Positions 1 to 55,182 of a stretch of 55,182 nt of DNA are shown piece by piece. Where the stretch lies: IMG/VR virus record IMGVR_UViG_3300027972_000014, positions 1 through 55,182 of that record, one strand, 5' to 3'. Source of the stretch: a virus. Taxonomy: Duplodnaviria; Caudoviricetes. Under the pieces are notes generated by a model, which saw only the letters and a list, made by a program, of their open reading frames with translations, searched no databases and was not told the DNA's origin. Every line of letters starts with the position of its first letter. The stretch's first letter is position 1. The position numbers and the translations under genes were made by a program.

Positions 1-148
1 TTCGTGGATAAACACATTATCTGGGGGCAGGCCGAAATACTGATCAACTATCCAACCTGCAACACGTTTATTAACTAACATTATTATCTCCTATTCCAGT
101 TTCTTGAAATTATAATCACCCATCATTAACGTGTGCGGCTCGAAATGC
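1..148. repeat. Terminal direct repeat, left copy (circular assembly overlap)
   Basis: 1-148 equals 55035-55182 except position 22 (T) versus 55056 (C). Confidence 0.97.
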
Positions 149-3997: not shown

Positions 3998-4172
3998 TTC
4001 CGGCAGCCTCCTCCAGCACGTCCAAAATATCAAGCCACGTTTTGGAGCGTGGCAATTGTCGCTCTAATGCCAACCGCCGTGACTTCCAAAATAGAAGTTG
4101 GTCACGGTGGTACTCTTCTTGTTGCAATGCTTCGTCTAATTCGTTACTGAGTTTTTTGGCTTCATTGTCCAT
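3978..4172 (-). CDS. Small coiled-coil hypothetical protein
   Basis: ORF with RBS, first gene after the attenuator-like leader. Confidence 0.55.
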   Translation of the reverse strand: MDNEAKKLSNELDEALQQEEYHRDQLLFWKSRRLALERQLPRSKTWLDILDVLEEAAGNDYNRN

Positions 4173-6592: not shown

Positions 6593-6678
6593 TCTCCTTT
6601 TTTGGTTTAACCGCTCCTCGAAGCCCGCGACCTTACCCGGACGGCTTGCGCCTCACCCGGCGGGGCTTCGAGCGGCGG

Positions 6679-6861
6679 TTAAGCCGCTAAAGTATCAGGG
6701 TATGTTTGCTTTAGTAAAGTTAAAGCAGATTTTAGTAGTCCATTCGAACTTCGCAAAGTTGCTTCGTCTTCCCAGTCAGTGGGTGACATTTTTTGGAGTT
6801 TCATTTGAGCTTGTTTTAGTTCGTATAAAAGCTGTTGCATTTCTGATAATTTTTCGTTCAT
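6679..6861 (-). CDS. Hypothetical protein, first gene of an early unit
   Basis: RBS GGAG, directly after a consensus promoter. Confidence 0.6.
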   Translation of the reverse strand: MNEKLSEMQQLLYELKQAQMKLQKMSPTDWEDEATLRSSNGLLKSALTLLKQTYPDTLAA

Positions 6862-42604: not shown

Positions 42605-43415
42605 TATGAGGTCGTAAAATTATCTTGATATACCCTACCGGCAATGCCGGATAACCCTTTGTCGTGGCATAGGTGTCATAACCTATACCGTCAAAAAACG
42701 TACCACAAAAAGCGCCCTGCCGAATTTTGCCGCGCATATTGTAGCCGTTGTCAACCTCCTCAACGGTTAGAGCCAATGGAAAAGTGCGATGGTTATGTCC
42801 CAATAGAGCCAGGTCGCAGTCATGGCGCAGCAGCACCCGCTCTAAAACCAACGCCGGGCCACCAGCCAATTGCCCCCCTCCGTGTCCGTGATGAACAAAG
42901 ATTTTTATTTTGGAGACAGCGTTCCTTCTCTCTTTATCCTGATAAAAATTCAGGATTAGCCAACCTGAATAACCAAATTCAAGTTTGTGTTCTGATGGAA
43001 ATTTACCCAATTCTTTGACACCGCAAATTGTTTCCCGATATATATCCCTCTCGAAATATTTACGAATCATAGCCTCGTGATTACCTTCGACTAATCCCAA
43101 ACACTGCCGGGCTATGGGTTTTATCAAGTTGAGGTAATGATTGCTTTGTGCTTTTGCCAGGTCTGACAGGTCATTTATGGTTAGCCAGTCAGCCAGAATT
43201 TCAGGTGAGAAACGGGGGTCGGAACGATTGATAAAGTCGCAACGGTCGCCCAGGTCAAGCCAGTAATTGAGAGGGGATGAAGCTATTTCGGATACCACCC
43301 GCGCCAGTTTGTCTTCCCGGCACGGCTTGATACCACTATGGATGTCAGTCAGGATATAGAGGTAAAACTCATCGGAGCGACTGACGCCGTAAAAATCCTT
43401 GCGGATTGTGTTCAA
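42561..43415 (-). CDS. Calcineurin-like metallophosphoesterase
   Basis: DIH, GD..D, GNHE, HG and GHNH motifs. Confidence 0.88.
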   Translation of the reverse strand: MNTIRKDFYGVSRSDEFYLYILTDIHSGIKPCREDKLARVVSEIASSPLNYWLDLGDRCDFINRSDPRFSPEILADWLTINDLSDLAKAQSNHYLNLIKPIARQCLGLVEGNHEAMIRKYFERDIYRETICGVKELGKFPSEHKLEFGYSGWLILNFYQDKERRNAVSKIKIFVHHGHGGGQLAGGPALVLERVLLRHDCDLALLGHNHRTFPLALTVEEVDNGYNMRGKIRQGAFCGTFFDGIGYDTYATTKGYPALPVGYIKIILRPHSEAHQRIEVIPQFP

Positions 43416-43422
43416 AATTAAC

Positions 43423-43764
43423 CTATAGATATTTAATAATGAGCGAAATAATAACAGCAGATATTATTATCCAGATTTTATCAGATAATAAAAAAGCAAC
43501 CCGTTTTTGTCCTTGTTCTATTTTTCTTTCGGCCTCAATTATACTGACACGCTTTTCTATTTCGTCTATACGTTTTATCAAATCGGTCTTGATAGACGCC
43601 AGGTCGTTACATAAATCGTCAAATTTATCACGCCTGATAATGTCCTTTGCCAATTGAGTGAGACCGTCGGCTACATCCTGTAACTTTTTCTCATGTGCTT
43701 TAAGGCGCTCGTCGAAATAATCCCGTATCGGTACCGTTATATCAGACTGTTTAACAGGAGGCAT
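43423..43764 (-). CDS. Coiled-coil protein with C-terminal TM (lysis-associated candidate)
   Basis: Coiled coil plus a single TM, next to the holin-like gene. Confidence 0.5.
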   Translation of the reverse strand: MPPVKQSDITVPIRDYFDERLKAHEKKLQDVADGLTQLAKDIIRRDKFDDLCNDLASIKTDLIKRIDEIEKRVSIIEAERKIEQGQKRVAFLLSDKIWIIISAVIISLIIKYL

Positions 43765-43797
43765 GTTTTCCTTAACAATTCTAACTTTTATCAGATA

Positions 43798-43830
43798 GCA
43801 TAAAGCCGGGCATTTAACCCGGCTTTATGC
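43798..43830. terminator. Stem-loop
   Basis: gcataaagccggg-catttaa-cccggctttatgc. Confidence 0.55.
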
Positions 43831-43843
43831 GCTTGCTGTAAAT

Positions 43844-44161
43844 CTATAACTTTTTTGTGGCTGACACTTTCTTTAGCCACTTGTCGGCGTAGTGGGCTAT
43901 TTGGCTGACAAGCCAGGCCACGACGGGCACAAACAGGTAAAATAGCGACGTGACTACTTGCTGCGCGTCTCCAAATTCCGGCTTCCACCAGCCACCGACC
44001 CAGGTCAGGACTGCCGGTAGCCCCCAGGCAAATGTAGCATTAATAACCTGCTTCAACCCGGCGCTTCCGATGTCGGCAAATTTACCGATACGCTCCTCAA
44101 TGAACGAGACGGCCATACCCCATATTGCCAATATCAAAACCTGCATTGCTGTTAATTCCAT
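43844..44161 (-). CDS. Holin-like membrane protein
   Basis: Three hydrophobic segments and a basic C-terminus; strong RBS. Confidence 0.55.
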   Translation of the reverse strand: MELTAMQVLILAIWGMAVSFIEERIGKFADIGSAGLKQVINATFAWGLPAVLTWVGGWWKPEFGDAQQVVTSLFYLFVPVVAWLVSQIAHYADKWLKKVSATKKL

Positions 44162-44264
44162 AGTTTTTTCTCCTTAAAATAAAATGCCGCAAGCGACACT
44201 TGCGGCTATACAGTATCGTTTGATACTGTTATTTTACACTATTTTACTTTTTTTTGCAATGAGT

Positions 44265-44296
44265 GTTCGCCCGTCCGCTGCAAATGCTTGTTAGCT
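44265..44296 (-). mobile_element. attC left half-site (truncated)
   Basis: Minus strand agctaac-aagcatttgcagcggacgggcg; no right arm. Confidence 0.6.
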
Positions 44297-44303
44297 GGCG
44301 TTT

Positions 44304-44504
44304 TTAGTATCGCTTGACCCAACTCGTCATTTTAGCTAACCGAGACGCCTGTTCAGCGCCCGCTCCATTGGCTTGTTGGGCGGATACTTCGACTATCCAT
44401 ATTGCCGATGCCCTGCCGTAAGACTTAAATTCATATTTTCTACCACATTTACATTTATTCTTTATCGCACCAGACCCACATCGGCAGTACAACCATTCCA
44501 TCAT
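44304..44504 (-). CDS. Small Cys-rich cassette ORF
   Basis: CRCG...CKCG; reads through an attC-like site. Confidence 0.45.
   Translation of the reverse strand: MMEWLYCRCGSGAIKNKCKCGRKYEFKSYGRASAIWIVEVSAQQANGAGAEQASRLAKMTSWVKRY
44334..44381 (-). mobile_element. Degenerate attC site
   Basis: gcccaac-aagccaatggagcgggcg...gttagct. Confidence 0.55.
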
Positions 44505-44523
44505 ATTTTTATCCTGATGTTTC

Positions 44524-44551
44524 GTCCAACTACAATAATAACTTGTTAGCT
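44524..44551 (-). mobile_element. Internally deleted attC-like site
   Basis: agctaac-aagttattattgta-gttggac; upstream gene stop lies in the R'' box. Confidence 0.45.
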
Positions 44552-44947
44552 GGACGTAAAATCTACCTCGTGCCAGTCCGCATAATAACCAAAATCACAA
44601 AATTGGATAGGATTTTTACAATCTTTGATGCCAGTCAATACTCCGTACCACAGACGACGGGCCACTTCATCGCCAACCTCATCATCAATAGTGATTGGCT
44701 GTTGCGTGTAAGCCGCGCCAGAGTCGGCTTCCGTCATTGCGTCTTGCAAGTCGCCGGAAAATTCTCTGTTTCCTGCTCCGGTGTGGTAATTAATGGTATA
44801 TGTTTTTTTACTCATCTTAATCTCCTTAGTATGTAGATGCTCCGCCATAGCGATTATCGCCTTAGCCTGCGATCCGTAAGTTTTAGCCAATTCGTTTATT
44901 TGTTTGATTGTTGGTTTCGGTAATCTGACGTTTAGTTGGATAGTCAT
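44546..44947 (-). CDS. RHH-like domain in frame with a second small protein (internal RBS and ATG at 44815)
   Basis: MTIQLNVRLPKPTIKQINELA; AAGGAG before MSKKTYTINYHTGAG. Confidence 0.6.
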   Translation of the reverse strand: MTIQLNVRLPKPTIKQINELAKTYGSQAKAIIAMAEHLHTKEIKMSKKTYTINYHTGAGNREFSGDLQDAMTEADSGAAYTQQPITIDDEVGDEVARRLWYGVLTGIKDCKNPIQFCDFGYYADWHEVDFTSS

Positions 44948-44992
44948 CTTTATGCGCTTTGCCGGGCTTGGCCCCCCGGCTGGGCTAAAAGT

Positions 44993-45268
44993 TCAATCTT
45001 GGAAATCTGGATGATGAGAGTCCAAAAAGTCGCGTGCGTCAAATTCCTCTCCATATCCCTCGGTCTGCAACATCATCATCGCTCGTTGTCGCTCTTTTTC
45101 TTCCCGGTTAATTTGCGATTCTGAGATTAGCCAGCCGCTTCCATCCTCAACCATTCCGCTAATTGGCTTTCCGTCTGAACTCATTCTTGCACCACAAGCG
45201 CATATACTTAATTTGATGTCACCAAACGGTAAGGTTCTTGTTTCTTTTGCTTTGTGTATGTGTTTCAT
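44993..45268 (-). CDS. Hypothetical protein
   Basis: RBS AAGGAG, first gene after a consensus promoter. Confidence 0.6.
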   Translation of the reverse strand: MKHIHKAKETRTLPFGDIKLSICACGARMSSDGKPISGMVEDGSGWLISESQINREEKERQRAMMMLQTEGYGEEFDARDFLDSHHPDFQD

Positions 45269-45314
45269 TTTTTAGCTCCTTTATTGCGTGCAATTGATTG
45301 ACTTGATTGTATAT

Positions 45315-45343
45315 AGTATAGCATATATGCTATACAATGTCAA
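45315..45343 (-). promoter_or_regulatory. Promoter with overlapping perfect 20-bp palindromic operator
   Basis: TTGACA-17bp-TATACT; gtatagcatatatgctatac at 45316-45335. Confidence 0.75.
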
Positions 45344-45402
45344 GGGTTTTTGCAATGAGTTTTTGTACCAATTTTGGTACACTCAGGAGCTACAATCAGT
45401 TC

Positions 45403-45526
45403 AGCTAACGGACGGCGCATCACCGGCTGCCGGTGTGGGCGATGCGACCCCCGCGATAATGTGATTTTGTTAGCGCACACTGCCCGATAACGCGCTATAG
45501 GCAGTCCGGTGATGCGCTTGTTAGGT
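45403..45526 (-). mobile_element. Integron attC site
   Basis: R'' acctaac; gcgcatcaccgg(a)ctgcc pairs with ggcagccggtgatgcgc, leaving one extrahelical base; R' gttagct. Confidence 0.8.
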
Positions 45527-45536
45527 TTACGTAAAA

Positions 45537-46214
45537 TCAAGGCTGCATAATAGTATACCCGTATTTATCACCAATCTCACAGCACGCCACCCGTCCGTTA
45601 TTGTTCCAATACGGAGGCCGAAGACGTACTTCGCGCAAGCCGTTTTTGTCGGGTAAATAGCGCATTGCAAGACCGTCTCGTACCAGTGAGTAGTCATTAT
45701 CAATTATTTCAACGGCAATCTCCTCAATACGCCCCATCCCCCGTCGCCGCTTGGTCGCCAAATATCGCACATTACGCTGTAGTAGGTCATTGATACGCTT
45801 GCGATTACCAACACAGTAGCCAACCATTCGCACCGGCATCTGTTTATTATAAGGGATGTCCCAACTACGAGTTGGACCGGTTTTGGTGTTAATCGTGCCG
45901 ACGGTCAGGTATAAAAACGACTCCCGGAATCGCTTACGAAAATGGACAATAGATTCCTCGATCTCGCCGTCATCCGATTCTGGGTGCAAGGCCGACGCGC
46001 ACCAGCCCCAATAATCGCCAATATGCCACGTGCCAAGCGGTAGGCGAATTTCCTCTGGCTCACCATCGCGGGTAGGCGCGATTTCACTTTGACGCACCAT
46101 TGGGCTTAAAGCCCAGTCAATGATACCGTCAAGTGTGGGCGGCACAAATGGGTCATAAATTATCCCAAACGGGTCTATCCAAAAAGTTACCTTTAACGGA
46201 GTTATAGCGCTCAT
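45537..46214 (-). CDS. csf3: Type IV CRISPR-associated Cas5-like protein
   Basis: PLKVTF...LDGII.WA; LPL...WCASA; FRKR; TGP.RSW; YCVGN...I.DLL; KRRRGMGRI G-rich loop; RPPYW. Confidence 0.8.
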   Translation of the reverse strand: MSAITPLKVTFWIDPFGIIYDPFVPPTLDGIIDWALSPMVRQSEIAPTRDGEPEEIRLPLGTWHIGDYWGWCASALHPESDDGEIEESIVHFRKRFRESFLYLTVGTINTKTGPTRSWDIPYNKQMPVRMVGYCVGNRKRINDLLQRNVRYLATKRRRGMGRIEEIAVEIIDNDYSLVRDGLAMRYLPDKNGLREVRLRPPYWNNNGRVACCEIGDKYGYTIMQP

Positions 46215-46216
46215 AA

Positions 46217-47476
46217 TTATCTCCACGCGGGGTTAATATATCTTGCCCCGTCCAGTAGTATTGTTTCGTCCCCCTGAGTAAGAGCAATTTGTCGGGCGTG
46301 GCTTTTTGCTGACATGATGCCATCACACTCAACGCTCCACCCTGGATTTGTTTTGGGGCGTCGAACGTTATCGTGCCACGCCTTTATTAAATTCGCTATT
46401 TCCTGATGGTATACCGCCTTTGCCCCTCCAAGCGGCGTTACGGGTTGCGGGATAAGCGGCGTCCATTTAATACGCAATGATACGGACTTTTTGAGAGGTA
46501 TCGCAAATACGGCTCCCATAACCCTCTCCCATTGTTTAAAATCCTCTTTTGGACGCTCCCAGGGATGGGCAAACATCTGAAATATTTTAAAGTTGACGTG
46601 TCCTTGAGTAATCATTATCCGAAAATAATCAACTATTTGTTTATCGGTGATTTTTTTATTAACCAGAAAGCGAGTTTCTTCGGTTAGTCCATCAATCCCT
46701 ACTCTAACAAGTTGGTTATTATCTACCGGAACACCCCCTTTTTTGATAATTTTATCAAGCCGGTATGAGCCAAACGCCTGTCGTAGTCCAAGTTCGCGCG
46801 CTTTAGCCAGATATAAGTTATACCAGGGTGTACTGGCTTCATCCGGCGCAAAAAAAACTATCTTTTTGGCTTGCAATGTATCAAGCGATTCCATCATCGC
46901 TAAAACATCCTCCGCTTTACGGTAGCGGAATGGCATCGAATGCCCTAACTCGCAATAGTGACAACGGAATGGGCAACCGCGAGCAACCTCTATATACCAG
47001 GCGGCAGATAACGTATTGGGGCGGTTAAGGTATGGTGGGTTGTCCGGCAGTGGTTTTTCATAATTACGTGGTGGAATTTCACCACCTTTCCATAATTCTG
47101 TAATAATCGTCCCGGGTAAATCCTTGAGCGCTATTATTACCCGCTCTTTGTCAAGTAACCTTGCCGCGTTTTTAATCCACGTCTCCCCGTCACCGAGGCA
47201 GATAACATCCATTAATGGAATCATCGGACGTGGATTGTTGTAAGTGACGTGCCCTCCCCCAATTCTGATTTTGCCGTGTTTAGGGGTTGTTTTTAGCCGC
47301 TCGTAATCCTCCGGGTGGTGGACACTAATCAACTCCACATCGTAATGATACCTTGAAGTATGAGGCGCAATCACATCAACTACATGCCCCATCCGGCGTA
47401 ATTGTTCTGCGACAAAAAACGCGCCGATTGACCCCACTTCTTCATCACCGGCAGGCTCTATTATACAAAAATTCAT
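46217..47476 (-). CDS. B12-binding-type radical SAM enzyme
   Basis: IEVARGCPFRCHYC (CxxxCxxC); GGGH...DVICLGDGE Rossmann-like N-terminal domain; ATG overlaps the csf1 stop. Confidence 0.88.
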   Translation of the reverse strand: MNFCIIEPAGDEEVGSIGAFFVAEQLRRMGHVVDVIAPHTSRYHYDVELISVHHPEDYERLKTTPKHGKIRIGGGHVTYNNPRPMIPLMDVICLGDGETWIKNAARLLDKERVIIALKDLPGTIITELWKGGEIPPRNYEKPLPDNPPYLNRPNTLSAAWYIEVARGCPFRCHYCELGHSMPFRYRKAEDVLAMMESLDTLQAKKIVFFAPDEASTPWYNLYLAKARELGLRQAFGSYRLDKIIKKGGVPVDNNQLVRVGIDGLTEETRFLVNKKITDKQIVDYFRIMITQGHVNFKIFQMFAHPWERPKEDFKQWERVMGAVFAIPLKKSVSLRIKWTPLIPQPVTPLGGAKAVYHQEIANLIKAWHDNVRRPKTNPGWSVECDGIMSAKSHARQIALTQGDETILLDGARYINPAWR

Positions 47477-48180
47477 TTTACGCCCCCACTCAATTCCTCC
47501 TGGCTCGGCAACAGGTACTCCATAAACTGATACAACGGCGCTTGATAATGCGCACGTGCCCAACGATAAAACGGCTGCCACACCGCGCCGATTTTATAGA
47601 TCATACCCACCGGGGCATCAAGTGTTTTGATAGCTGTACGCCAAACGCCAGCGTCCTGAACCTCACGCATTATGCGCCAATACTCAGTGACAGTGTCGAT
47701 ATTTGCATTAACCAGCAGATCGTTAAATCCCCACACGCCGTAGGGCCGCCCGTTGACCGGAGAACGTAGAGAACCGTGTTTTTTGTAGGTGGTCGTCACC
47801 CACCCAGCCCAATGTTTTGCGGTTGTGCCGTTAAGCACCAAATCTCTAATCTTTGGCTTGCCGACCTCGATAAATTGCTCTCCATCACACCACCAACAAG
47901 CCATCATTTCTGGCTTTTTCTTACGCTTTTTTGGGGTATCGTCCTCGTTAGTGCCATACTCTCCATATTGCCAGGCGTACCAGGCGTTAAGTCCTACCCT
48001 GTCACTATCAGGAGCAGCCAGCAGTGACGTATCACTAAAATTACTACTGAGTAATCTAGAGCGAGGGATAGTATCCCCCGCTCTACCTGTGATACAGCAC
48101 ATACCAAATTGCGGTTCGATTGGCGGCGGCTCACGATTTGTTATAGGTATAGCTTGTGCTAATAGGTCTACAGTGTGCAT
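47473..48180 (-). CDS. csf1: Type IV Cas8-like large subunit
   Basis: CCITG...LLSSNFSDTSLLAAPDSDRV; TTTYKKH...PVN; sits between csf2 and csf3. Confidence 0.65.
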   Translation of the reverse strand: MHTVDLLAQAIPITNREPPPIEPQFGMCCITGRAGDTIPRSRLLSSNFSDTSLLAAPDSDRVGLNAWYAWQYGEYGTNEDDTPKKRKKKPEMMACWWCDGEQFIEVGKPKIRDLVLNGTTAKHWAGWVTTTYKKHGSLRSPVNGRPYGVWGFNDLLVNANIDTVTEYWRIMREVQDAGVWRTAIKTLDAPVGMIYKIGAVWQPFYRWARAHYQAPLYQFMEYLLPSQEELSGGVK

Positions 48181-48206
48181 TACGCCTCCTTAAACATCGG
48201 TGTTTT

Positions 48207-49484
48207 TTAGTTATCTGACTGCTTTTGCGAGGCGAATCCGCCAATTTGCCGGAGGTAGTCTATAATCGCCTGCTTATTATCGGCCAGGTAGCGATTATAC
48301 AATGATCCATTAAGTGTTAATTTGGACTGATACTCAATAGTCGCCCGGCCAAAACCCCGGTGAACCTTGCCACCAAGATAACCAAACTGCTGCATCATTT
48401 CTAATCCCTTAGCCAGCGCAGATATTTCTACGTCGGTGATGTGTAGGTCAACGTCAATACCGCCCTCTAGCACTGCCCCCTCTATAAGACATTCATAATT
48501 GGCAATCATTGACTTGTTAGCCATATCGCCATTGCCAGTTTCTTTAGCTTGCAACTTGCTGATTTTATTCTCAAGGTCATCACGATTGACGATGTATCGC
48601 CAGTCCATTAACATTTCCACTGATTCATCGCCATTCCCCCATTCGACGCATTGCGGGCGTAGATCGTTGATGTACACACGACCCTCAAGCGGGCTTTTGC
48701 CCACACCACCCAACAACGAAAAATAAGGAATCATATTTCGCAATTGGATCGCCCCGTTTACTTTTATTGCCCCGGCTACGTTGCCAGTTAAGGCTGCCTC
48801 GAATAATTTAGGGATCGCTCCATCGGCCATAATGCCGCCAGATGTCAGTAAGTGCAAAAACCAAGGCGCAAATAACCGCTCTCGGCTTTTAGTATCGTAA
48901 CCAAGCGCGGTGACAAAATGCTTTGCAAACAGGTCACGCATCTGTCCCGCCCAGGCGTTGGCTGAATAGTACGGTAATTCTTGGCCGCCTCGCACGCTAC
49001 CACGGCGAAACAAAGTATTGTTACCGGCCTTTTTGTCATCGCCGTGAGTAAAAGCGTTTTCTAGCGTGGCTATAATGCCAATATCAAACGGGCGACGGCG
49101 GTGCATTTGCACATTTTTAACTATTCGTGGTTCGTAAGCCGCGCAAAAGTCGGTAATCATTTTTGGCCTATTGTCCATGCTGGCCGTCGCCATTGATATG
49201 GAAATTGACGGTTGCTCTCGGAGCCAAATATAACACGAATCGGCATCTTCTGCAGCAGCTGCGCTCATAAGCCCCTGCGTTGTAGTACCGCGTAGTACGG
49301 GACTTCCCAATAGCTCGCCAAACCGATTAATAGTAGATAGTAACTTACCGGACGTGCAAGCAACACGAAGCCTCCCGGCAAAGAAATCATATTTGCCGGT
49401 TGAGCCACTTTTTACAGATGCGTTATTCATAATCTCGCCCAATGCGGCGAGGGTCTTTCCAACGGTATCGGTCGTAAGTTTCAT
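48207..49484 (-). CDS. csf2: Type IV Cas7-like backbone protein with N-terminal Cas11-like extension
   Basis: FTHG...GN..LFRR; LPYYSANAWAGQMRD; LTSGG; IPYFSLLGG; YECLIEG; LGGKVHRGFG G-rich loop; about 110-aa helical N-terminus ending WLREQP. Confidence 0.85.
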   Translation of the reverse strand: MKLTTDTVGKTLAALGEIMNNASVKSGSTGKYDFFAGRLRVACTSGKLLSTINRFGELLGSPVLRGTTTQGLMSAAAAEDADSCYIWLREQPSISISMATASMDNRPKMITDFCAAYEPRIVKNVQMHRRRPFDIGIIATLENAFTHGDDKKAGNNTLFRRGSVRGGQELPYYSANAWAGQMRDLFAKHFVTALGYDTKSRERLFAPWFLHLLTSGGIMADGAIPKLFEAALTGNVAGAIKVNGAIQLRNMIPYFSLLGGVGKSPLEGRVYINDLRPQCVEWGNGDESVEMLMDWRYIVNRDDLENKISKLQAKETGNGDMANKSMIANYECLIEGAVLEGGIDVDLHITDVEISALAKGLEMMQQFGYLGGKVHRGFGRATIEYQSKLTLNGSLYNRYLADNKQAIIDYLRQIGGFASQKQSDN

Positions 49485-49486
49485 TT

Positions 49487-49858
49487 TTAGTCCTTTCTAA
49501 AATCCATATCGTTGTAATTTTCCCAGGGATGGCGTTTGCCCCCCCCTCTATATTTTTTTCTTGCTTCGTTCATTATGGGCACTTTCTTGAGCGCAGCCTT
49601 GTGAGCCGCATCTGTTTTATGTTTAACCTCAACAATCTCCGGCGGCGTCCACCGGTTGACGGTCATAATATGCACACCCAACTTATTAGCTACCTGTTCT
49701 ACGGTCAACCCTTCGCCGATGCGTAAATATTGAATCACGTCTGATGGATGGCGGCCAGGGAGTATATCCGCACATGCCCTCACCATCTTTGTGTGCCATA
49801 AAAATATTCTGTCTGTGTTGACTTTTCGCAACCTGGTTTTTTGGTTAGTAGATAGCAT
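49487..49858 (-). CDS. HTH DNA-binding protein heading the cas operon
   Basis: EGLTVEQVANKLGVHIMTVNRW. Confidence 0.7.
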   Translation of the reverse strand: MLSTNQKTRLRKVNTDRIFLWHTKMVRACADILPGRHPSDVIQYLRIGEGLTVEQVANKLGVHIMTVNRWTPPEIVEVKHKTDAAHKAALKKVPIMNEARKKYRGGGKRHPWENYNDMDFRKD

Positions 49859-49869
49859 TGTCTTAGTAA

Positions 49870-49977
49870 ACCTAACGCCCCCGGTTTCGCCGGCTGGCGC
49901 GTAATAAAACTACTTGATTTCTAAACTCATTTTCATTTGCCCGGCTTCCACCAGTCCGGCGCAAACCGTTGTTGGGT
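49870..49977 (-). mobile_element. Integron attC site
   Basis: R'' acccaac; cggttt(g)cgccgg(a)ctgg pairs with ccagccggcgaaaccg, leaving two extrahelical bases; R' gttaggt. Confidence 0.82.
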
Positions 49978-50155
49978 GGCTGTTTGCGCTGCGCCAAATT
50001 CCATTGACATATTTATACCCATTTTCTTGCATAATGATAGGGTAGCAATCGTCACAGATGTTACGAAAAGCGTCTTTTTCCCTGGAATTTTTAGCGGGCA
50101 TCATTACCCGCACCGCACTTTCCAGATTAGATTTTTTGCACCTATAACACTTCAT
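49910..50155 (-). CDS. Small Zn-binding cassette ORF
   Basis: CYRC...CDDC; RBS AGGAG; ends inside the attC. Confidence 0.6.
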   Translation of the reverse strand: MKCYRCKKSNLESAVRVMMPAKNSREKDAFRNICDDCYPIIMQENGYKYVNGIWRSANSHPTTVCAGLVEAGQMKMSLEIK

Positions 50156-50179
50156 AATATTTTCTCCTGGTGACGTGAC

Positions 50180-50210
50180 GCCCAACGCCGCATTTCAGGG
50201 GCGGTCACGT
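50180..50210 (-). mobile_element. attC right half-site
   Basis: Minus strand gcccctgaaatgcggc-gttgggc; left arm not found. Confidence 0.55.
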
Positions 50211-50368
50211 ATACTTTACATTTGCAATTATCTAATTTCCCGCCTGATAATAATACCACATATTCCACAAATTACATCACGTACCAACGCCACAATACCG
50301 CCACGTAATACGGTTTCAAGCCAGGGGGTATATCTATGATTATATTCGGGATGATTACACATTATTCC

Positions 50369-50812
50369 TCAATTCTCTGGTTGTAACCCGTAGCTGTCAT
50401 CGTCAACCCCGTCGCCAGGTTTGCCGTCAAACGAGATGTCATTACCTATGGCATCAATTGCCTCAACTGCCCTACGTGGATGTCCAAAGTTGGGATATTC
50501 TGCAATCAATTCAGCCACAATTCCCGGCAATTCCGAGGCGTCAATTTCGTGACGTTTAACATCGCGCCTGAATGTAATAGTCATTTTATCCGATGATACA
50601 TTCAGCCAGGCTAATTCAACCACACGGTCATTGTCGAAAGCCGTGTAGGTGTAAGTATCCCACCCGCTAATACTTTGACGAATATCGAAGCCAAGTCGGG
50701 TTATAGCCGGGTCGCCCTGACCGGGGTCGGTTATTTTTCGAAATGCTTTTTGGCTAACATTACCCTTACCGCGTTCTTGCGCTGTTAAAAACCATAACAT
50801 TGATGCGTTCAT
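50369..50812 (-). CDS. Hypothetical protein
   Basis: RBS AGGAG, directly after a consensus promoter. Confidence 0.65.
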   Translation of the reverse strand: MNASMLWFLTAQERGKGNVSQKAFRKITDPGQGDPAITRLGFDIRQSISGWDTYTYTAFDNDRVVELAWLNVSSDKMTITFRRDVKRHEIDASELPGIVAELIAEYPNFGHPRRAVEAIDAIGNDISFDGKPGDGVDDDSYGLQPEN

Positions 50813-50848
50813 TGTCGTGTCTCCTGTCTAATTCAATCCTATGTGTCT

Positions 50849-50942
50849 ATTATATCGCACTTTATTCCATTTGTCAATAACTATATTACATAATATACAC
50901 CCAATATTGATTATTGACATTTAGGACAAGTTGGGTTATAAT
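50849..50942. promoter_or_regulatory. Divergent sigma70 promoter pair
   Basis: Minus: TTGACA(50877-72)-17-TATAAT. Plus: TTGACA(50914-19)-17-TATAAT. Confidence 0.8.
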
Positions 50943-50990
50943 GAAGGTATCTATTCAATATATTTATGCCAGTCAAAGAAAGGTTATAAA

Positions 50991-51803
50991 ATGTCTGACC
51001 AAAATTTCTATGAACAAGATTTTGATTTTATTGATGAGACTCAGGCCGAGGCGGTTCTGCCCCCGCTTATCCAGTGGCATCGCGGAGACTTGCAGAACGT
51101 CAACGAGATGCTCAAAGTAGGTTGTTTCCAGTTGCCGGTAGAGCGGTATAGCCTGGACAACCAAGAGCCAGTTGATGTGCTGCACGGCACGGTTGTCATC
51201 CCCTCCTATCTATTCAAGGGATTGCATATTGCTATCCTGGCTTACCGCAAAGATTGGTTTACCGGGCGCGGTAAGGAAAGCCGCCCACAGGTTTCCTTTG
51301 ACCCCAACGCCAAAGCTTGGAGTCGTATCCAAGTATGGGCAATAGTAAAACAACTGGATAATGCCCAATTTATTCTTACTTTTTCCCGCTCGAACGCAAT
51401 GGGGATTGAGGAAACTATCAAGCAATTTCGCAATGTTGTTATTGGCCCGGTTAGCCAAAAAGTCAAGAAAAATTTCCCGCTCTATTCCTTTTGGTGTCCT
51501 ATCGGCCCGGACAAGCCAAAGGAATTTAAGGAACAGGGCACTTATGCCACACCTCCCAAATTATTCTTGACCCCGCCGGTATCAGAAAATAAACTAAAAG
51601 AATTATTCACCGGCAAAGATATAGTCGAAATGGCCGCCGGTATCTATCCTCTCGCCAAAAAATGGTCAAAACAACCATTGGGACAGCGGGAAGAAACAAC
51701 AGTAATCCCCGATGAAACTTTACCTGATACCGGCGATGTGCAACCGCCGCCATTTCTGCCAAATGAAGAAACAATTATAACCGATGAAGAATTTCCTTTT
51801 TAG
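50991..51803 (+). CDS. Putative ssDNA-binding/annealing protein
   Basis: Acidic tail ending TDEEFPF, like the SSB C-terminal motif. Confidence 0.5.
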   Translation: MSDQNFYEQDFDFIDETQAEAVLPPLIQWHRGDLQNVNEMLKVGCFQLPVERYSLDNQEPVDVLHGTVVIPSYLFKGLHIAILAYRKDWFTGRGKESRPQVSFDPNAKAWSRIQVWAIVKQLDNAQFILTFSRSNAMGIEETIKQFRNVVIGPVSQKVKKNFPLYSFWCPIGPDKPKEFKEQGTYATPPKLFLTPPVSENKLKELFTGKDIVEMAAGIYPLAKKWSKQPLGQREETTVIPDETLPDTGDVQPPPFLPNEETIITDEEFPF

Positions 51804-51812
51804 GATAACCCA

Positions 51813-52037
51813 ATGACACCGCAAGAGCTAATTGATGACATCAATACCCAAGTGTCCACACCAACCGCTCGTTTCCGTTGCCCGATGCACTTCTACCGGA
51901 CAATGCGCAAACATTACAACCCGTCCTGGACGTGGCCCAAGCCTGATGCGCCGGCGAGTGAATGGGCGTGGCTCTACGGTTACGGCGTTGAATACGCCAA
52001 ACAAAAGGAGGTGATGCAACAACAAATAGAGGAATAA
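51813..52037 (+). CDS. Hypothetical protein
   Basis: RBS AGGA, follows the SSB-like gene. Confidence 0.55.
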   Translation: MTPQELIDDINTQVSTPTARFRCPMHFYRTMRKHYNPSWTWPKPDAPASEWAWLYGYGVEYAKQKEVMQQQIEE

Positions 52038-54912: not shown

Positions 54913-55115
54913 TCCGTAATCTCCTCAATAAACGGCCCGTTTGCCCACTCTACAAAATGCAAAAACCGGTCGCAGTGTATCAATGCTTCTTTTGCAATTT
55001 CCGCCTCGGTCGCCGTATCCTCTACGGTAACAGCTTCGTGGATAAACACATTATCCGGGGGCAGGCCGAAATACTGATCAACTATCCAACCTGCAACACG
55101 TTTATTAACTAACAT
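54909..55115 (-). CDS. Hypothetical protein (follows the helicase across the circular junction)
   Basis: RBS AGGAG overlapping the helicase stop codon. Confidence 0.55.
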   Translation of the reverse strand: MLVNKRVAGWIVDQYFGLPPDNVFIHEAVTVEDTATEAEIAKEALIHCDRFLHFVEWANGPFIEEITE

Positions 55116-55182
55116 TATTATCTCCTATTCCAGTTTCTTGAAATTATAATCACCCATCATTAACGTGTGCGGCTCGAAATGC
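55035..55182. repeat. Terminal direct repeat, right copy
   Basis: Matches 1-148. Confidence 0.97.

Follow-up and report, generated by a model that had tools for sequence, protein, structure and literature searches.

A type IV Cas-like operon between two attC-like hairpins in a tailed-phage genome: a candidate cassette in a proposed, partly decayed integron-type row

The window analysed here is a whole IMG/VR virus record (IMGVR_UViG_3300027972_000014; 55,182 bases, completeness estimate 100%) from a tailed phage, and our subject is a five-gene operon on its minus strand (49858-45537) that lies between two attC-like hairpins, sites A and B (Table 1). In gene order the operon encodes a helix-turn-helix (HTH) protein, a type IV Cas7, a Csf1-like protein, a B12-binding radical SAM enzyme and a Cas5. 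An earlier, sequence-only reading had taken the whole block for a single integron cassette, bounded by well-formed attC hairpins, that is, or was, mobilisable by a host IntI integrase.

By its PADLOC matches the operon has the three proteins of a type IV effector (Csf2, Csf3 and Csf1); the matches to NCBIfam models lie below the cut-offs (Cas7 to TIGR03115, E 9e-6; Cas5 to TIGR03116, E 7e-18). The Cas7 protein has about 130 additional N-terminal residues and the Csf1-like protein gave no match against Pfam. The radical SAM gene sits between the Csf1-like gene and Cas5; its start was set at ATG 47476 (the longest frame begins at 47581), and its product matches B12/radical SAM families down to E 6e-16, each below its cut-off. 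The PADLOC scan found no Cas6, DinG or nuclease in the operon, a separate Cas11 gene was not seen, and repeat scans of the window showed no CRISPR-like array.

Table 1. Features of the operon and its surroundings, with positions in the 55,182-base window
Feature	Position	Strand	Details
Sigma-70 perfect consensus promoter, head of leftward early genes	50849..50877	-	12/12
Site A, upstream attC-like hairpin, ACCCAAC ... GTTAGGT	49870..49977	-	bulged G at 16, bulged A at 23
Putative single cassette, 4,467 nt	45409..49875	-	first base the T next to the G in A's GTT, last base the G in B's GTT; placed by the integron crossover rule
Operon gene 1, 123 aa, weak helix-turn-helix	49487..49858	-	HTH families, E 1e-3 to 4e-3, all below cut-offs
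Type IV Cas7 (Csf2-like), 425 aa	48207..49484	-	PADLOC typeIV_Cas7, E 5e-35, residues 137-421
Csf1-like (type IV Cas8-like), 235 aa	47473..48180	-	PADLOC typeIV_Cas8 (Csf1), E 6.4e-7
B12-binding radical SAM enzyme	46217..47476	-	PF04055, 34.5 bits, cut-off 29.5
Type IV Cas5 (Csf3-like), 229 aa	45537..46226	-	PADLOC typeIV_Cas5, E 2.1e-27
Site B, downstream attC-like hairpin, (GTAA)ACCTAAC ... GTTAGCT	45403..45530	-	17-bp stem, single bulged A at 22
Sigma-70-type promoter (TTGACA, 17 nt, TATACT, with TG), just 3' of site B	45315..45343	-	11/12 hexamer positions
Site C, degenerate short site (GTCCAGCTAAC, 14 nt, GTTGGAC), boxes without arms	44520..44555	-	end of the module after B
Site E, GCCCAAC ... 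GTTGGGT, stemless, inside the 3' end of the 66-aa gene	44313..44385	-	11.5 / 10.6 bits (models R1/R2), within noise
Site D, truncated, CGCCAGCTAAC then AAGC	44290..44300	-	repeat family D19

Both sites are read here on the minus (gene, or top) strand, A as 49977-49870 and B as 45530-45403. As the sequence-only reading had stated, the two ends of the operon block are exact 11-bp reverse complements, GTAAACCTAAC (49866-49876) and GTTAGGTTTAC (45520-45530). The upstream box GTTAGGT (49876-49870) ends 11 nt 5' of the operon ATG (49858) and the Cas5 stop codon (45539-45537) lies 10 nt ahead of ACCTAAC (45526-45520), so that the close spacing noted earlier (about 12 and 10 bp) also holds. The attC box pattern RYYYAAC/GTTRRRY is found at both ends of A (ACCCAAC and GTTAGGT) and at the 5' end of B (ACCTAAC), the 3' box of B (GTTAGCT, 45409-45403) departing from GTTRRRY at one position. 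The AACAA extension is present in both sites, A ends with GGCGTTAGG as in the consensus of both covariance models used below (R1 and R2), and the box-to-box lengths of 108 nt (A) and 124 nt (B) fall within the 57-141 bp of attC sites. The 5' half of site A falls within the final codons of an 82-aa gene (50155-49910), an overlap with the gene end that is frequent among real attC sites.

The folds of the two sites differ in strength. For site B the folding energies of the two strands are -32.0 and -35.6 kcal/mol (z -3.6 and -4.9); the fold of site A is weaker (-21.9 and -18.5 kcal/mol, z -2.0 and -1.3), 7 and 22 of 200 shuffles folding equally well. In layout site A has the box ACCCAAC at 1-7, then three unpaired positions, five pairs, a bulged G at 16, six pairs and a bulged A at 23; the plus (bottom) strand has C and T as bulged bases, both facing the AAC triplet from the other arm. 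In the attC layout of Nivina et al. (2016; PMC5027507) the extrahelical bases likewise lie opposite the AAC triplet, at 16 and 23/24; a stem of 6 bp separates the two, and the last is a bottom-strand T. Apart from the identity of its first bulged base site A agrees with this layout, which the real attC sites compared here show too. Site B is bulged at 22 alone; a variant contig (X5/X6, described below) has an extra base at 16, by which the pair 16 and 23 is restored. In the class 1 estX attC (L009:33793-33723) the 5' arm closely resembles site B. Sites A and B are related in direct orientation, both holding CCGGACTG ... CAGCCGG ... 13 nt ... GTTAG, a pattern that occurs twice in the window and in none of 100 shuffles; the sequence common to the two consists of these 7-8-nt cores and GTTAG alone. 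Other hairpins of the window (e.g. 6605-6684) have symmetric, bulge-free stems and do not score on R2.

The most telling feature of the region is how its modules begin and end. On the minus strand, the 11 nt running from each GTT box were compared for complementarity with the 11 nt that run up to and include each AAC box. Along the row the start of each module matched its own 3' box at 8 (Z to A), 11 (A to B, the operon), 10 (B to C) and 8 (C to E) of 11 positions, against 5-8 for non-cognate pairs, and the cognate pair was the highest in its row, with one row tied. Thus site C is complementary at 10/11 to the start of the module that it ends (45409-45399), and site E at 8/11 to 44530-44520. 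In an integron cassette the start, after the G of GTT, complements the 5' box of the cassette's own attC, and for the operon this match is 11/11; the self-complementarity of cassette ends to which the sequence-only reading had appealed is therefore found, exact for the operon and at 8, 10 and 8 of 11 positions in the neighbouring modules. Among 188,356 GTT/AAC-anchored pairs from the window, 10 or more matches occur at a frequency of 5.6e-4 and 11/11 in 10 pairs (5.3e-5). Unanchored 11-bp inverted repeats within 5 kb are not rare by themselves, about 60 being expected somewhere in 55 kb. The arms pair perfectly inside A and inside B, yet differ between A and B, so that any crossover must fall in the interval from the 3' arm to the variable part of the 3' box. 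It is at this position that integron integrases act, and the sequence common to A and B is too short for homologous exchange; this is our strongest argument for a site-specific, integron-like origin. A transposon with 11-bp terminal inverted repeats was considered and rejected: transposase and target duplication are both absent, and the hairpins are direct repeats.

Two attC covariance models of our own were used in place of that of IntegronFinder, and searches were run with filters off. R1 was built from 18 sites of class 1 arrays (a P1 phage-plasmid and two plasmids) and of a Vibrio anguillarum phage integron; R2 has 38 sites, after addition of two TJE1 and seven Shewanella phage sites. Sites outside the training set of R1 served as controls: three TJE1 sites scored 21.2-24.7 bits, their number matching the count of Qi et al. 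(2023; PMC9892861), and seven Shewanella sites scored 22.4-25.0 bits. Site A was the top match in the window with R1 (14.4 bits) and, with R2, the top match in 55 kb on both strands (17.5 bits, E about 0.08); the match has precisely the ends that were predicted and lies on the gene strand only. The second-best R2 match in the window had 12.9 bits and the maximum in 80.6 kb of unrelated DNA was 13.7 bits. A coincidental likeness has also to be considered, the hairpins being ordinary intergenic structures whose resemblance to attC sites and cassette ends is accidental. The fold of site A is unexceptional, the model scores are under the usual thresholds, and inverted repeats of this length are expected by chance; but the joint core pattern occurs twice against none in 100 shuffles, complementarity of 11/11 and 10/11 falls at consecutive junctions (anchored probabilities 5e-5 and 6e-4), site A is the single best model match with its ends and strand as predicted, and CTAACAAG stands on the gene strand at three successive module ends. 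We take the framing of the operon to be real and non-random, and consider coincidence highly improbable.

Two side observations concern the sequence of site B. Its loop (45454-45475) contains a second box, CGCTAAC-AAAA, a near-complement of the 3' box of B and the match that R1 preferred (7.1 bits); B may be a composite of two sites, or the second box may be due to chance. Separately, AAGCGCAT, the motif that opens the 5' arm of B, also stands before a perfect 13-bp terminator-like hairpin at about 43834-43800 and again just 5' of ATG 44947, both on the minus strand (motif windows 43800-43850 and 44950-44990); with five matches in the window against 2.5 expected its frequency is not significant.

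All the natural variants of the region come from short assembled contigs. The tables for runs X5 and X6 are identical; the two probably represent the same data and were counted once, and stretches without contig cover were not counted as evidence. One soil-metagenome contig (X2) skips 44517-45413, which holds the promoter, a 91-aa gene and a 133-aa gene, with its junction at the R' box of site B. In this contig site B leads, by way of a GTT box whose extension differs, straight into the ribosome-binding site of the 66-aa gene, and the new extension is complementary at 10/11 (hand count) to 44385-44375. This is a cassette-like presence/absence pattern, but for the neighbouring module and not for the operon. 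A contig of X5/X6 carries a B-type hairpin that is intact and lies behind a box near-identical to that of site D, and has the appearance of a complete version of the truncated site D. Among the contigs and relatives compared, none lacked exactly the operon block. Of the expectation that relatives would show presence or absence at the G|TT crossover, what stands is therefore the loss of the next module at the box of B in X2; absence of the operon block was not seen and other breaks fall elsewhere.

With moderate confidence we read 50186-44313 as an integrase-less row, resembling a CALIN (cluster of attC sites lacking an integrase), of at least four integron-type cassettes, now partly decayed, in the early region of the phage, in which the operon is one cassette of 4.47 kb. 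Sites A and B would be hairpins derived from attC, with the plus strand as the 'bottom' strand that recombines, and a host-supplied tyrosine recombinase of the IntI kind would once have carried out strand exchange at G|TT in the 3' boxes. Exchange at this point would account for the complement to its own 3' box with which each module begins. The excised circle would have its junction at 45409|49875, where the 3' arm of B is followed by GTTAGGTTTAC, and in the empty form of the site the 3' arm of A would be followed directly by TTAGCTGAAC. We infer that an IntI-type enzyme made the junctions and that the operon was moved whole, in a single piece. By now the sites seem to have decayed in part, B being without the first bulge and C, D and E without arms, and because of the state of site B mobilisation of the operon today is unlikely. 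The proposal that the block is, or was, mobilisable by a host IntI thus divides, a past move by an IntI-type enzyme being plausible and present mobility doubtful.

Several observations weigh against a row of integron-type cassettes. The 17.5 bits of site A are below the 21.2-25.0 bits of the 10 independent true sites on R1, and also under the 20-bit threshold of Qi et al. (2023), which was set with a different model. Site B scores only 7.3 bits with R2, below the noise of the window though at full length and in the expected register, and R1 did not find it at full length; its alignment has bulge 16 deleted and a 2-nt insertion in the 3' spacer, and site A carries the same 2-nt insertion. In the model frame the 3' spacer is 8 nt in A and B against 5-6 nt in 38 of 38 real sites, a comparison that comes from the model-fitted alignment (in the folds themselves the bubble measures 3x6 for A and 2x5 for B). 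The first bulge of site A is a bottom-strand C, whereas G is usual in attC. On our own models, then, site A is marginal and site B fails, and both share one systematic departure from canonical sites. The earlier description of two well-formed attC flanks is right in that both fold as related hairpins, and overstated in view of these scores and of the 3' box of B, which is off by one; likewise a search with our models, of the kind that had been suggested as a check with IntegronFinder, places A above background and does not score B as an attC. Sites A and B are 4,339 nt apart, which exceeds the default 4-kb clustering distance of IntegronFinder. Among the variant contigs, the B-type hairpin of X5/X6 stands behind different upstream sequence with its breakpoint at the 5' box of B, just 5' of CTAAC; another X2 contig has its break at 45344, which is the -35 box of the promoter and not a GTT; and a short X5/X6 piece shares only 49902-49937 (36 nt), inside the loop of A. 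The loose ends found at positions 49902 and 49937 are perhaps opposite sides of a single short contig, and they carry no information on the presence of the operon. No tyrosine recombinase is encoded by the window phage or by G001, a phage with a related operon. The composition of the operon is ordinary for the genome (GC 0.477 against 0.471; tetranucleotide distance rank 17 of 102 windows), and a hairpin site after Cas5 was found in 0 of 3 related operons (L001, L002 and L017, described below).

The irregular breakpoints, together with the promoters of the region, bear on an alternative in which the hairpins are regulatory stem-loops with early promoters, comparable to the PeSL elements of T4-type phages, and the modules are shuffled by homologous or illegitimate recombination of the phage without any integrase. 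Upstream, 50849-50942 holds two back-to-back sigma-70 consensus promoters in opposite directions (12/12 each), probably the early divergent control region of the phage. The leftward one (50877-50849) probably serves the operon, reading through site A; the terminator scan listed no terminator-like site between this promoter and the operon. The promoter just 3' of site B would drive the module after B, and sites A and B may also act as RNA stem-loops that separate transcription units. A stem-loop origin would account for the 11/12 promoter 60 nt after B and for the promoter-like stretch, resembling the one after B, that follows the D19 remnant at site D. It would also explain the order stop codon, stem-loop, promoter, start codon, which is that of PeSL, and it suits a phage without an integrase; neither the X2 break at the -35 box nor the 36 nt that X5/X6 shares within the loop of A is of integron type. 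However, the 7-8-nt cores and GTTAG shared by A and B are too little for homologous exchange, the complements between starts and own 3' boxes (8, 11, 10 and 8 of 11) and the bulges at 16 and 23 are not predicted, and no T run follows A or B, neither of which appeared in the terminator scan. According to Arbiol et al. (2010; PMC2839356), PeSL give rise to mini-circles and account for the genes gained and lost among close phages. The likeness to the present region lies in a stem-loop with a sigma-70 early promoter between small accessory early genes, in gain and loss of the flanked genes and in the circular intermediate proposed; unlike the sites here, PeSL recombine through about 100 bp of shared sequence and are without RYYYAAC/GTTRRRY boxes, fixed bulges and start-to-end complementarity. 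Here a hairpin with promoter is found at B and a truncated copy at D, none at A, and A and B share short cores only. By analogy PeSL is the closest non-integron counterpart, B with its promoter having the PeSL layout, and we judge this explanation somewhat unlikely.

Related operons with the same or a similar gene order were found in two IMG/VR records (L001 and L002) and in a contig of a Chloroflexota metagenome-assembled genome (MAG; L017), the identity of Cas7 being 46-53% (L001 53%, L002 48%, L017 53%). In L017 the third gene is a 273-aa open reading frame (ORF) and not a full-length radical SAM enzyme. L002 belongs to phage G001, which is complete (49.7 kb, direct terminal repeats) and carries a strong match to the attC model about 1 kb upstream of its operon (L002 3229-3365 (G001:C1), plus strand, 30.3 bits, E 4e-5 to 8e-5). 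This site has a fold z of -4.3 and bulges 7 nt apart, and lies between an ORF and a DNA methyltransferase gene, just upstream of the latter; a degenerate second site (4041-4145) with the same 12-mer box stands directly upstream of the operon. A 9-nt complement of this degenerate upstream box in L002 lies inside a downstream ORF without an adjoining hairpin and was set aside as a chance match. By analogy with the phage CALINs of Qi et al. (2023), the methyltransferase of G001 looks cassette-like. The MAG of L017 encodes a full integron integrase (G002:C187:31615-32562), which scores 469 bits where the cut-off is 265. Our model, which is weighted towards gammaproteobacteria, found no clear attC array within 20 kb of this gene (best matches 15.5 and 15.2 bits), so that the element is either of the In0 type or has attC sites of a type missed by the model. 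The link from this MAG to the window phage is indirect and no host is assigned.

The departures shared by A and B, i.e. the additional 2 nt in the 3' spacer and the bottom-strand C as first bulge, have the look of a family trait rather than of random decay, and this could mean that the cassette logic is real and the enzyme is not IntI but another structure-specific recombinase, e.g. a Xer-like one of phages or hosts. Yet tyrosine recombinases of any kind are missing from both the window phage and G001, canonical attC is closely matched in boxes, AACAA extension and bulge spacing, and the G001 site reaches 30.3 bits on a model made from IntI-type sites only. We find such an enzyme quite unlikely, and return to an IntI-type origin of the row. 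Within that origin, the ordinary composition of the operon and its occurrence without flanking sites in three other contexts point to a phage-lineage module that was later framed by sites, or was captured once; this suggests that it is not a widely circulating cassette. A stronger version, in which the operon is a still-functional 4.47-kb cassette on a lytic-type phage, excised as a circle and captured by a host integrase, and the sites are a longer-spacer variant tuned to the integrase of an unsampled host clade, seems to us unlikely. Were it true, the operon would be the first known case of a Cas effector module that travels as an integron cassette, and this cassette would have more than twice the usual upper size.

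Other comparisons by sequence gave little. Among GenBank phages neither 43000-52000 at the DNA level nor Cas7 by tblastn had a match, and the relatives found by the portal protein were all below 30% identity, none of them close. No IMG/VR relatives were found for three flanking proteins (147, 91 and 82 aa). Records retrieved by the DNA patterns of the sites, L003 from IMG/VR and L004-L006 from JGI metagenomes, proved to be chance matches inside high-GC coding regions; a second site pattern gave zero matches in IMG/VR. Records very near to the window may have been left out of these searches. Rfam models over 43700-51000 gave nothing above threshold, the single sub-threshold match being to rimP-leader (43757-43855, 25.1 bits against a gathering score of 47). 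The ends of the window (1-148 and 55035-55182) form a 148-nt terminal direct repeat, 99% identical, in a record classed as linear without end repeats; it is either the assembly overlap of a circular map or a true terminal repeat.

The cargo finds its nearest parallel in the type IV-B Csf systems. Like these, the operon encodes Cas7 (Csf2), Cas5 (Csf3) and a Csf1-like protein, is without Cas6, DinG and nuclease, and is CRISPR-less; unlike them it is phage-borne, its accessory gene encodes a B12 radical SAM enzyme, and its Cas matches lie under the NCBIfam cut-offs. The accessory gene of type IV-B systems is CysH-like. A limited literature search for type IV-B together with radical SAM gave, among the papers listed, none that combines both terms, which is not proof of absence. 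Type IV-B complexes are described (PMC7937560) as assembling on non-CRISPR RNA.

Compared with canonical integrons (class 1 and Vibrio), the region shares the boxes, AACAA, the bulges at 16 and 23 with a 6-bp stem, a long variable loop and module starts that complement their own 5' box. It differs in its spacers, 5 x 8 nt against 5 x 5-6 nt in 38 of 38 sites, in having no integrase and no attI, and in that the module after B has a strong promoter of its own. Integron cassettes are thought of as small. In IntegronFinder (PMC4889954) a CALIN is at least two attC sites less than 4 kb apart on one strand, without an integron integrase nearby, the 4-kb limit being double the largest cassette's size. 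The present row falls outside that definition, only A being above model background and B lying 4,339 nt from it, and agrees with it in the absence of an integrase; the candidate cassette is more than twice the largest-cassette size behind the 4-kb rule. Detection rules now in use (4-kb spacing, canonical spacers) would miss such units. If a whole Cas-like operon moves as one phage-borne cassette, integrons and phages together could spread multi-gene modules of immunity or counter-immunity, and the pair A and B, with its shared non-canonical spacer, offers a test case for the substrate tolerance of integrases. If instead the sites are inert relics, the region is still one more integrase-less phage cassette row of the published kind.

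Rows of this kind are described by Qi et al. (2023; PMC9892861), who report 17 CALINs in 10,705 phage genomes, virulent phages included, and recombination with IntI1 for five of the six sites tested. As in those, the region here is an integrase-less row of attC-type sites in a tailed phage, with genes co-oriented and several ORFs between adjacent sites. As far as they are described there, it departs from them in that only site A exceeds model background, with a score below theirs and a spacer longer by 2 nt, and in that one module is a 4.47-kb five-gene Cas-like operon instead of one or two small genes. Defence genes are also carried as cassettes by chromosomal integrons (Darracq et al., 2024, preprint, 10.1101/2024.07.02.601686), and in that preprint CRISPR-Cas is given as entirely absent from 85,204 integron cassettes. 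The likeness is that immunity-type genes occur as cassettes; the difference is that here a full Cas-like effector operon would be a single cassette. The kind of element is thus known, since phage attC arrays have been published, and what is new is the Cas-like effector cargo, the size of 4.47 kb and the longer spacer that the two sites share.

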